Source of the DNA: Escherichia coli | GTDB taxonomy: Bacteria; Pseudomonadota; Gammaproteobacteria; Enterobacterales; Enterobacteriaceae | NCBI RefSeq assembly: GCF_003334785.1 | Contig: NZ_QOWV01000009.1 | Length of the DNA: 64,000 bases | Direction: 5' to 3' (one strand) | Shown here: positions 41,544 through 45,860 of the stretch, one piece after another | Layout: each line of letters opens with the position of its first letter | How positions within the stretch are numbered: position 1 is the first letter of the stretch | Position numbers and translations under genes: made by a program | Notes under the pieces: generated by a model | What the model saw: the letters and a program-made list of their open reading frames with translations, nothing else | Databases searched by the model: none | Told to the model about the DNA's origin: nothing

Positions 41544-44696
<3,153 letters not shown>

Positions 44697-44713
44697 TACA
44701 ACGTGTAATCACT

Positions 44714-44738
44714 AAGGCCGCGTAAGCGGCCTTTTTTA
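44714..44738 (+). terminator. Intrinsic terminator downstream of acrB
   Basis: AGGCCGC-gtaa-GCGGCCT followed by TTTTTT. Confidence 0.8.
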
Positions 44739-45241
44739 TGCATAACCTACGAACATTAAGGAGTAATTGAACCACCAACTCAGGATCTCATACGAAAACC
44801 AGTATTAACCACGGATAAAATTCATAAAAAATACTGATTGTTAGTTAATTTATATTAAGTAGCGCTAATAGATTTAATAATCCATAATCATTTAGAGGCT
44901 ATTCTTAATTATTTGCGGTAATTCTTTATTCATTCCTCGGTTATTACGTCATATTCAGAGCAATCCTGGTATTAGTGTCACCAATTTCATCTGGCGATAA
45001 TCCTGAAATGTTATGAATAGTTCGAGCAAACTGCTTTTACCTGCTGCGGGTTAGTGCTAGTATGAAAAAGTGAGTCCTGTCCCGCTTCCTTCCTAATTGT
45101 AATTTTTCGTAATAATGCGATGAAAACCTGCAAAGAGTGGCTTATAGTTAAGCTAACAAACGAGAGGGCAAGTCCAGGTCAGTAAGTTTTTTCCATCCCG
45201 AAAGGTGTCCGTTAGTTCAACCGCTAAGAAGGGGACGCGTT

Positions 45242-45616
45242 ATGGATGAATACTCACCCAAAAGACATGATATCGCACAGCTTAAGTTTCTCTGTGAAAC
45301 CCTGTATCATGACTGCCTTGCAAACCTTGAAGAAAGCAATCATGGCTGGGTAAACGACCCAACCTCGGCGATCAACCTCCAGTTGAATGAACTGATTGAG
45401 CATATTGCGACCTTCGCACTTAATTACAAAATTAAGTATAATGAAGACAATAAGCTCATTGAGCAGATCGACGAATATCTGGATGACACCTTTATGTTGT
45501 TCAGTAGTTATGGTATTAATATGCAGGATCTTCAGAAATGGCGGAAGTCAGGTAATCGACTATTCCGTTGTTTTGTCAATGCGACGAAAGAGAATCCTGC
45601 GAGTTTATCTTGTTAG
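45242..45616 (+). CDS. tomB: Hha toxicity modulator
   Basis: 124 aa, immediately upstream of hha. Confidence 0.9.
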
Positions 45617-45641
45617 AATTATTACAACCATAGGTAGAAGT

Positions 45642-45860
45642 ATGTCCGAAAAACCTTTAACGAAAACCGATTATTTAATGCGTTTACGTCGTTGCCAGAC
45701 AATTGACACGCTGGAGCGTGTTATCGAGAAAAATAAATACGAATTATCAGATAATGAACTGGCGGTATTTTACTCAGCCGCAGATCACCGCCTCGCCGAA
45801 TTGACCATGAATAAACTGTACGACAAGATCCCTTCCTCAGTATGGAAATTTATTCGCTAA
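45642..45860 (+). CDS. hha: Hha haemolysin-expression-modulating protein (H-NS co-regulator)
   Basis: 72-aa product [72 protein letters not shown]; the track shows it only as the tail of a longer, wrongly extended ORF. Confidence 0.93.

Follow-up and report, generated by a model that had tools for sequence, protein, structure and literature searches.

The long, AT-rich stretch of DNA between acrB and tomB in Escherichia coli raises a simple question: is it transcribed as a leader of the tomB-hha operon, does it conceal a gene of its own, or does it act as DNA upstream of a promoter? Because it is Hha that determines how strongly H-NS silences virulence genes and horizontally acquired genes, the control of tomB-hha matters. 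We consider it very likely that the spacer of 545 bp is made up of the acrAB terminator followed by the upstream regulatory region, the promoter, and the short leader of the tomB-hha operon, and that it is not a long leader.

The acrB-tomB spacer

In the window (the whole 64-kb stretch of DNA analyzed here), the genes acrA, acrB, tomB, hha, maa, and ylaC follow one another in this order on the + strand. The acrB open reading frame (ORF) ends at 44696 and the ATG of tomB lies at 45242, which bears out the previously reported distance of 545 bp (44697-45241). The products of tomB (45242-45616, + strand) and hha (45642-45860, + strand; ATG at 45642) comprise 124 and 72 amino acids (aa), respectively. 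The earlier note on this DNA described the two genes as a toxin-antitoxin-like pair that includes a co-regulator of H-NS, and published abstracts agree, as they describe a TomB/Hha module in which Hha is the partner of H-NS. The adjacency of the genes on one strand, with hha beginning 25 bp past tomB, fits the layout of a type II toxin-antitoxin operon, and an RNA covering both genes served as an RNase E substrate in a published study.

The spacer is identical, base for base, to positions 480,709-481,253 of K-12 MG1655, and the annotation of that genome places no feature inside it. Among 5426 complete E. coli genomes, 5424 contain the spacer at 90% identity or more (at least 95% in all but 19). 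As its earlier description as unusually long would suggest, no other of the 41 gaps annotated across the 50-kb K-12 neighborhood is as long; the median is 127 bp, and the runner-up measures 315 bp. Of the gaps there that reach 100 bp or more, just one has a lower GC content than the spacer (0.378). Given these ranks, "long and AT-rich" exceeds chance. Locally, GC content falls to a minimum of 0.19 per 100 nt, compared with 0.52 for the neighborhood, and the stretch at 44752-44974, with no more than 30% GC, ranks among just five such troughs in the window. Positions 44760-45060 had been called very AT-rich. This is true of 44750-44999 (GC of 0.25 to 0.34 in 100-nt windows) and not of 45000-45100, which is only moderately AT-rich (approximately 0.38 to 0.43).

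At the upstream end of the spacer, a terminator scan identified the intrinsic terminator of acrB (44714-44739, + strand), which consists of the GC-rich hairpin AAGGCCGCGTAAGCGGCCTT (44714-44733) and a T-run. Across 16 genera the hairpin is retained, and both arms show changes that preserve pairing (for example, GGTCGC/GCGACC and GGGCCGC/GCGGCCC). The scan found no other + strand terminator in the spacer.

Transcription start and core promoter

Two published datasets of 5' ends place the start of tomB transcription at A45155, which defines a 5' untranslated region (UTR) of 87 nt (45155-45241, + strand). In the supplement of PMC4488433, the start is given as 480795(-) in NC_000913.3, 87 nt before the ATG, and the accompanying flanking sequence fits window positions 45115-45158, so that the start corresponds to A45155. 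The supplement of PMC3415461 (Kim et al. 2012) maps the start independently to the same base (480019(-) in version 2 coordinates; UTR of 87 nt). In both datasets, which span few growth conditions, this is the sole start in the spacer. The list of Kim et al. contains no second start there on either strand in E. coli, and the next entries beyond that of tomB are a start before hha and then acrA. For Klebsiella pneumoniae, the same list contains one orthologous ybaJ start with the same promoter sequence and a UTR of 97 nt, and no further start between this one and acrB. The tomB/hha substrate RNA of the RNase E study begins at -89, in agreement with the mapped start. In Salmonella, three promoters were predicted within 1000 bp upstream of tomB, and GFP was produced only from the proximal one, p922; fragments p201 and p622 drove none (PMC5133643).

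A start at 45155 leaves approximately 460 of the 545 bp upstream of the transcript, with 16% of the spacer transcribed. The earlier note had taken the spacer for an unusually long leader, a reading that does not survive UTR lengths of 87 nt (E. coli) and 97 nt (Klebsiella). Under other growth conditions, a distal promoter that H-NS silences or that requires Rcs may also be active.

The core promoter, ptomB (45120-45148, + strand), was found by a promoter scan as a -35 hexamer ATGAAA and a -10 hexamer TATAGT separated by 17 bp. The same hexamers were assigned to tomB-hha on the basis of RpoD-holoenzyme SELEX, in which a peak occurs in the spacer and purified holoenzyme alone binds in vitro (PMC3946193). 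The -10 hexamer is invariant in the 16-genus alignment. A sigma-S ChIP-seq peak also covers the tomB promoter (PMC4447067), at window positions 45059-45254 by our own coordinate conversion. In addition, ptomB has served in published work as the model for primer-dependent initiation in stationary phase, and initiation of this kind reportedly increases tomB expression. Autoregulation by the antitoxin has been claimed from a gel shift in Salmonella (PMC5133643). Around the E. coli tomB start, the sequence GTTAAGCTAAC amounts to no more than a near-palindrome, and it lacks conservation.

A CpxR-type box upstream of the promoter

Operators of CpxR are tandem direct repeats that resemble GTAAA-N5-GTAAA and lie upstream of the -35 hexamer. 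A putative operator of this type, TTGTAATTTTTCGTAAT (45097-45113, + strand), was recognized by sequence pattern at -58 to -42 from the tomB start. It contains GTAAT-TTTTC-GTAAT at 45099-45113, and this GTAAT-N5-GTAAT arrangement fits the repeat pattern of the Cpx regulon. The box is invariant in 16 genera and present in 75 of the 78 loci with enough upstream sequence. Its distance to the end of the -10 hexamer is 52 bp in 74 of these 75 loci, and UTR length varies. Erwinia amylovora keeps the box and the adjacent promoter at a different location, where tomB-hha is preceded not by acrB but by an ABC-transporter gene and an unannotated ORF of 117 aa.

A motif located 56 bp before TSS2 lets CpxR~P bind the ymoBA promoter of Yersinia and activate it (PMC13353760). 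The ymoBA operon of Y. pseudotuberculosis is orthologous to tomB-hha, with the CpxR motif at -56 from the proximal start, compared with -58 to -42 in E. coli. It differs in that ymoB has a second start 82 bp further upstream, with no listed counterpart in E. coli or Klebsiella; the Yersinia operon is described here as in the publication. For E. coli itself, ybaJ appears among the EcoCyc response-regulator targets, within a run of Cpx genes (PMC3118216), and a machine-learning inference of a Cpx link is cited in PMC13353760. The putative CpxR input at E. coli ptomB draws on this secondary listing.

Sequence drift and in vitro H-NS binding in the distal spacer

A TomB-based scan of species-representative genomes yielded 80 Enterobacteriaceae loci. 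The spacer measures approximately 435 to 559 bp, with a GC content of 0.35 to 0.40, in 76 species; that of Mangrovibacter measures 846 bp. The proximal 160 bp (45082-45241) are well conserved across genera (identity, 0.59 to 0.76). The AT-rich distal upstream region (44822-45081, unstranded; GC of 0.25 to 0.43), which carries a published in vitro H-NS site, is weakly conserved. The distal part of the E. coli spacer shares an identity of 0.37 to 0.52 with those of other genera, and the values for four-fold degenerate sites of tomB are 0.25 to 0.65. The distal sequence therefore drifts near-neutrally while length and GC content are kept, and retention of length and AT content despite this drift argues for a function that depends on bulk properties and against an encoded RNA or protein. 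The earlier note had set against its own proposal a transcriptionally silent, unconserved spacer with a single promoter near tomB. Our findings come close to this description, except that the spacer is not wholly unconserved.

Between the terminator and the distal region lies a segment of approximately 80 nt (44742-44820, unstranded) that occurs only in Escherichia. It is gapped in the 16-genus alignment, and its identity to non-Escherichia genera is 0.01 to 0.17. The segment adjoins the 3' side of the acrB terminator, and its origin is unexplained. A 12-nt inverted repeat (44732-44743 and 44820-44831) flanks it, as would be seen in a MITE, but the segment is single copy per genome in 5424 E. 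coli genomes and is therefore not a repeated mobile element.

That H-NS is likely to bind this DNA, as previously suggested, agrees with the in vitro genomic SELEX map of 987 H-NS sites, which includes the acrB-tomB spacer (PMC3946193). The GC content of the spacer relative to that of its neighborhood (0.378 versus 0.52) is as AT-rich as an H-NS-bound region is expected to be. The high-affinity nucleation motif of H-NS resembles TCGATAAATT. A scan for this motif returned one match with two mismatches, overlapping the CpxR-type box, and window-wide counts barely above chance; there was no informative match in the spacer. Low GC content, a long spacer, and sites for both RNA polymerase and H-NS are features shared with other H-NS-bound core promoter regions in SELEX maps. 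Unlike H-NS-bound islands, the tomB-hha spacer is core, vertically inherited DNA beside a housekeeping efflux operon and was not horizontally acquired, and its occupancy by H-NS is an in vitro result.

Since Hha works with H-NS, and an H-NS site lies upstream of its own operon, feedback by Hha through H-NS on the tomB-hha spacer is plausible. We infer that H-NS at the spacer would damp ptomB. In Salmonella, expression from p922-GFP fell in hha and tomB single mutants; the p922 fragment comprises approximately 250 bp, without the distal region (PMC5133643).

Alternative functions of the distal spacer

The RcsB homodimer box has the consensus TN(G/A)GAN4TC(T/C)NA (PMC7913699). The pseudopalindrome TCAGAGCAATCCTG in the distal spacer (44955-44968, unstranded) matches it at seven of the eight specified positions and may be an RcsB site. 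Two further candidate elements nearby, also unstranded, are a weaker box-like sequence, AGAGGCTATTCTTA (44894-44907), and a possible half-site, ATTCTTTA (44921-44928), for which the alignment consensus is TAnAGGCTnnTCTTA...AATTCTTAATT. The GA-N4-TC core of the palindrome is invariant in 16 genera amid near-neutral flanks, and many species have a perfect version (TAAGAATATTCCTA, TAGGAATATTCCTA, or TAAGAATATTCTTA). A single perfect box within the 480 bp upstream of tomB, at the orthologous place, was found in 41 of 77 loci. The remaining sequence of these loci, approximately 375 kb, holds one perfect site, and such a box arises in 3.5% of spacers simulated with matched composition, although the species are phylogenetically related, so that the locus counts are not independent and are inflated by shared ancestry.

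These observations bring up a reading in which a distal cluster of operators for RcsB, or for another regulator of the FixJ/NarL type, either counteracts silencing by H-NS or activates a distal promoter under certain conditions, providing a second envelope-stress input. We regard this as possible, if on balance unlikely. The pattern is shared with the RcsB and RcsAB boxes of rprA, flhDC, cps, and osmC, but the box in the distal spacer differs from these in lying far upstream, at a variable distance, and in being imperfect in E. coli. E. coli, Salmonella, and some Citrobacter have only the seven-of-eight match, and the protein that would bind there is guessed from the consensus. As a rule, RcsB homodimers bind next to the -35 hexamer. 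At tomB, the distance from box to ATG varies from 237 to 373 bp, the box lies approximately 190 to 230 bp upstream of the start, and there is no -10 element at a fixed offset from it. A literature search turned up no link of RcsB to tomB or ybaJ.

It is also conceivable, but rather improbable, that the distal spacer is nonfunctional filler that was simply never deleted. Its identity across genera is about that of four-fold degenerate sites, and rare strains tolerate insertion of, or replacement by, IS1. Yet a length of approximately 435 to 559 bp and a low GC content are retained in 76 species from many genera despite sequence turnover, conserved islands persist within the spacer, and in only 15 of 5424 E. 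coli genomes is 80% or more of it missing.

We find it very hard to credit that the spacer hides an independent gene for a small RNA or a small protein, both of which had been suggested. It does offer 545 bp of unannotated DNA, AT-rich DNA is rich in promoter-like hexamers, and several genera have an A-run 5' of the acrB terminator, which could then terminate transcription in both directions. Against this, an Rfam search (E ≤ 10) found no family, only sub-threshold terminator look-alikes on the acrB terminator (Trp leader, isrD/isrK, and Aggregatibacter sRNA82), all far below their gathering scores. K-12 has no annotated feature there, Kim et al. list no second start on either strand, and the distal sequence is approximately neutral. 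We rejected a - strand small RNA ending at a bidirectional acrB terminator, as just two T residues come after the E. coli hairpin on that strand, the A-run does not hold from genus to genus, and there is no listed start.

The search for a small protein gave a similar outcome. The ORFs of at least 20 aa in the spacer number one of 21 aa on the + strand (45120-45185), the longest on that strand, and two of 24 aa and 40 aa on the - strand, consistent with the earlier statement that no ORF there can be supported. None of the 10 ORFs of at least 10 codons is intact in seven relatives (three Escherichia, two Salmonella, and two Citrobacter), and all 10 are disrupted even within Escherichia. The ATG of the 21-aa ORF belongs to the -35 hexamer, ahead of the transcription start, and this start codon is therefore missing from the tomB mRNA; the ORF is not intact in any relative. 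Neither is a 14-codon upstream ORF with a GTG start (45205-45249). A 13-codon ORF with a TTG start, following AAGGAG at 44767, lies in the Escherichia-only segment and is broken in the other Escherichia examined.

Within the 5' UTR, two blocks are conserved, CCATCCC (45193-45199) and the Shine-Dalgarno (SD) sequence AAGGGGA (45229-45235). The former is near-invariant across genera and complementary to the SD region, which reads GGGGAT in most species. The sole UTR structure in the alignment fold is an invariant UCCC/GGGA pairing of the CCATCCC block with the SD sequence. We nevertheless rejected an SD-sequestering hairpin despite the conservation of both blocks. The single-sequence fold of the UTR is no better than that of shuffled sequence (z = 0.02), and the alignment fold shows no covariation in the UTR, where the anti-SD:SD pairs never vary on both sides; the only pair with changes on both sides sits in a coding-region helix. 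Moreover, a T-to-C change in Escherichia breaks one pair of the putative helix. The complementarity could still serve as an element of translational control. That transcription of tomB-hha covers the whole spacer as a long leader with a riboregulatory element is the least credible reading of all, since, for all the length of the spacer and the conserved SD-complementary block in the UTR, transcription starts 87 nt (E. coli) or 97 nt (Klebsiella) from the ATG, Rfam matches are confined to the terminator look-alikes, and the UTR has neither excess stability nor covariation, with one anti-SD pair broken in Escherichia.

Discussion

The locus is that of the K-12 ptomB (ybaJ-hha) promoter, and the window adds no new sequence. 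The published K-12 promoter sequence, start, and 87-nt UTR match window positions 45115-45158, and the promoter, the start, the short leader, the CpxR-type site, and the H-NS call have all been published already for the identical K-12 sequence. As the spacer is a characterized promoter region of a model organism, novelty is low. The main value of the analysis is negative, in that it finds neither a long leader nor a hidden RNA or protein. The conserved RcsB-box-like palindrome in the distal spacer is possibly a new detail, suggested by comparison of sequences, and makes a second envelope-stress input a hypothesis that is cheap to test.

The reading that we prefer is a regulatory region upstream of a short leader. 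Transcription proceeds from the single proximal promoter, ATGAAA-17-TATAGT, starting at 45155 and giving the 87-nt 5' UTR. The CpxR-type direct repeat, phase-locked at -58 to -42, would tie ptomB to envelope stress. The approximately 350 bp between the acrB terminator and the promoter module, AT-rich DNA that maintains its length and composition as its sequence drifts near-neutrally, are most likely a platform for H-NS and a few distal regulators that tunes or insulates ptomB. Because the platform would bind H-NS, H-NS/Hha would be the complex concerned.

A more elaborate version joins this H-NS/Hha platform to an RcsB-type cluster (44894-44968), at which Rcs envelope-stress signaling would displace or remodel H-NS and, together with CpxR at -58 to -42, set the level of Hha, the co-repressor that acts with H-NS. 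We consider this combination doubtful. If true, it would constitute an undescribed feedback node joining two envelope-stress systems to genome-wide H-NS silencing.

Additional features of the operon and its promoter

A further start, proximal to hha, lies inside tomB at window position 45527 (479647(-) in version 2 coordinates), 115 nt 5' of hha (PMC3415461). It is weaker than the tomB start and was found in both E. coli and K. pneumoniae. With a start in this position, the "toxin" gene can be transcribed without the "antitoxin" gene. Our scan also identified a consensus-like promoter, TTCGCA-18-TATAAT, at 45413-45442, which has no listed start site.

Rare natural IS1 events strike the tomB promoter. 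In E. coli FAM21845, IS1 has split ptomB at 45134-45142, between the -35 and -10 hexamers, and the target duplication measures 9 bp. In E. coli TUM13773, IS1 replaces 44802-45184 (383 bp), so that the AT-rich region, CpxR-type box, and promoter are lost along with the first 30 nt of the UTR.
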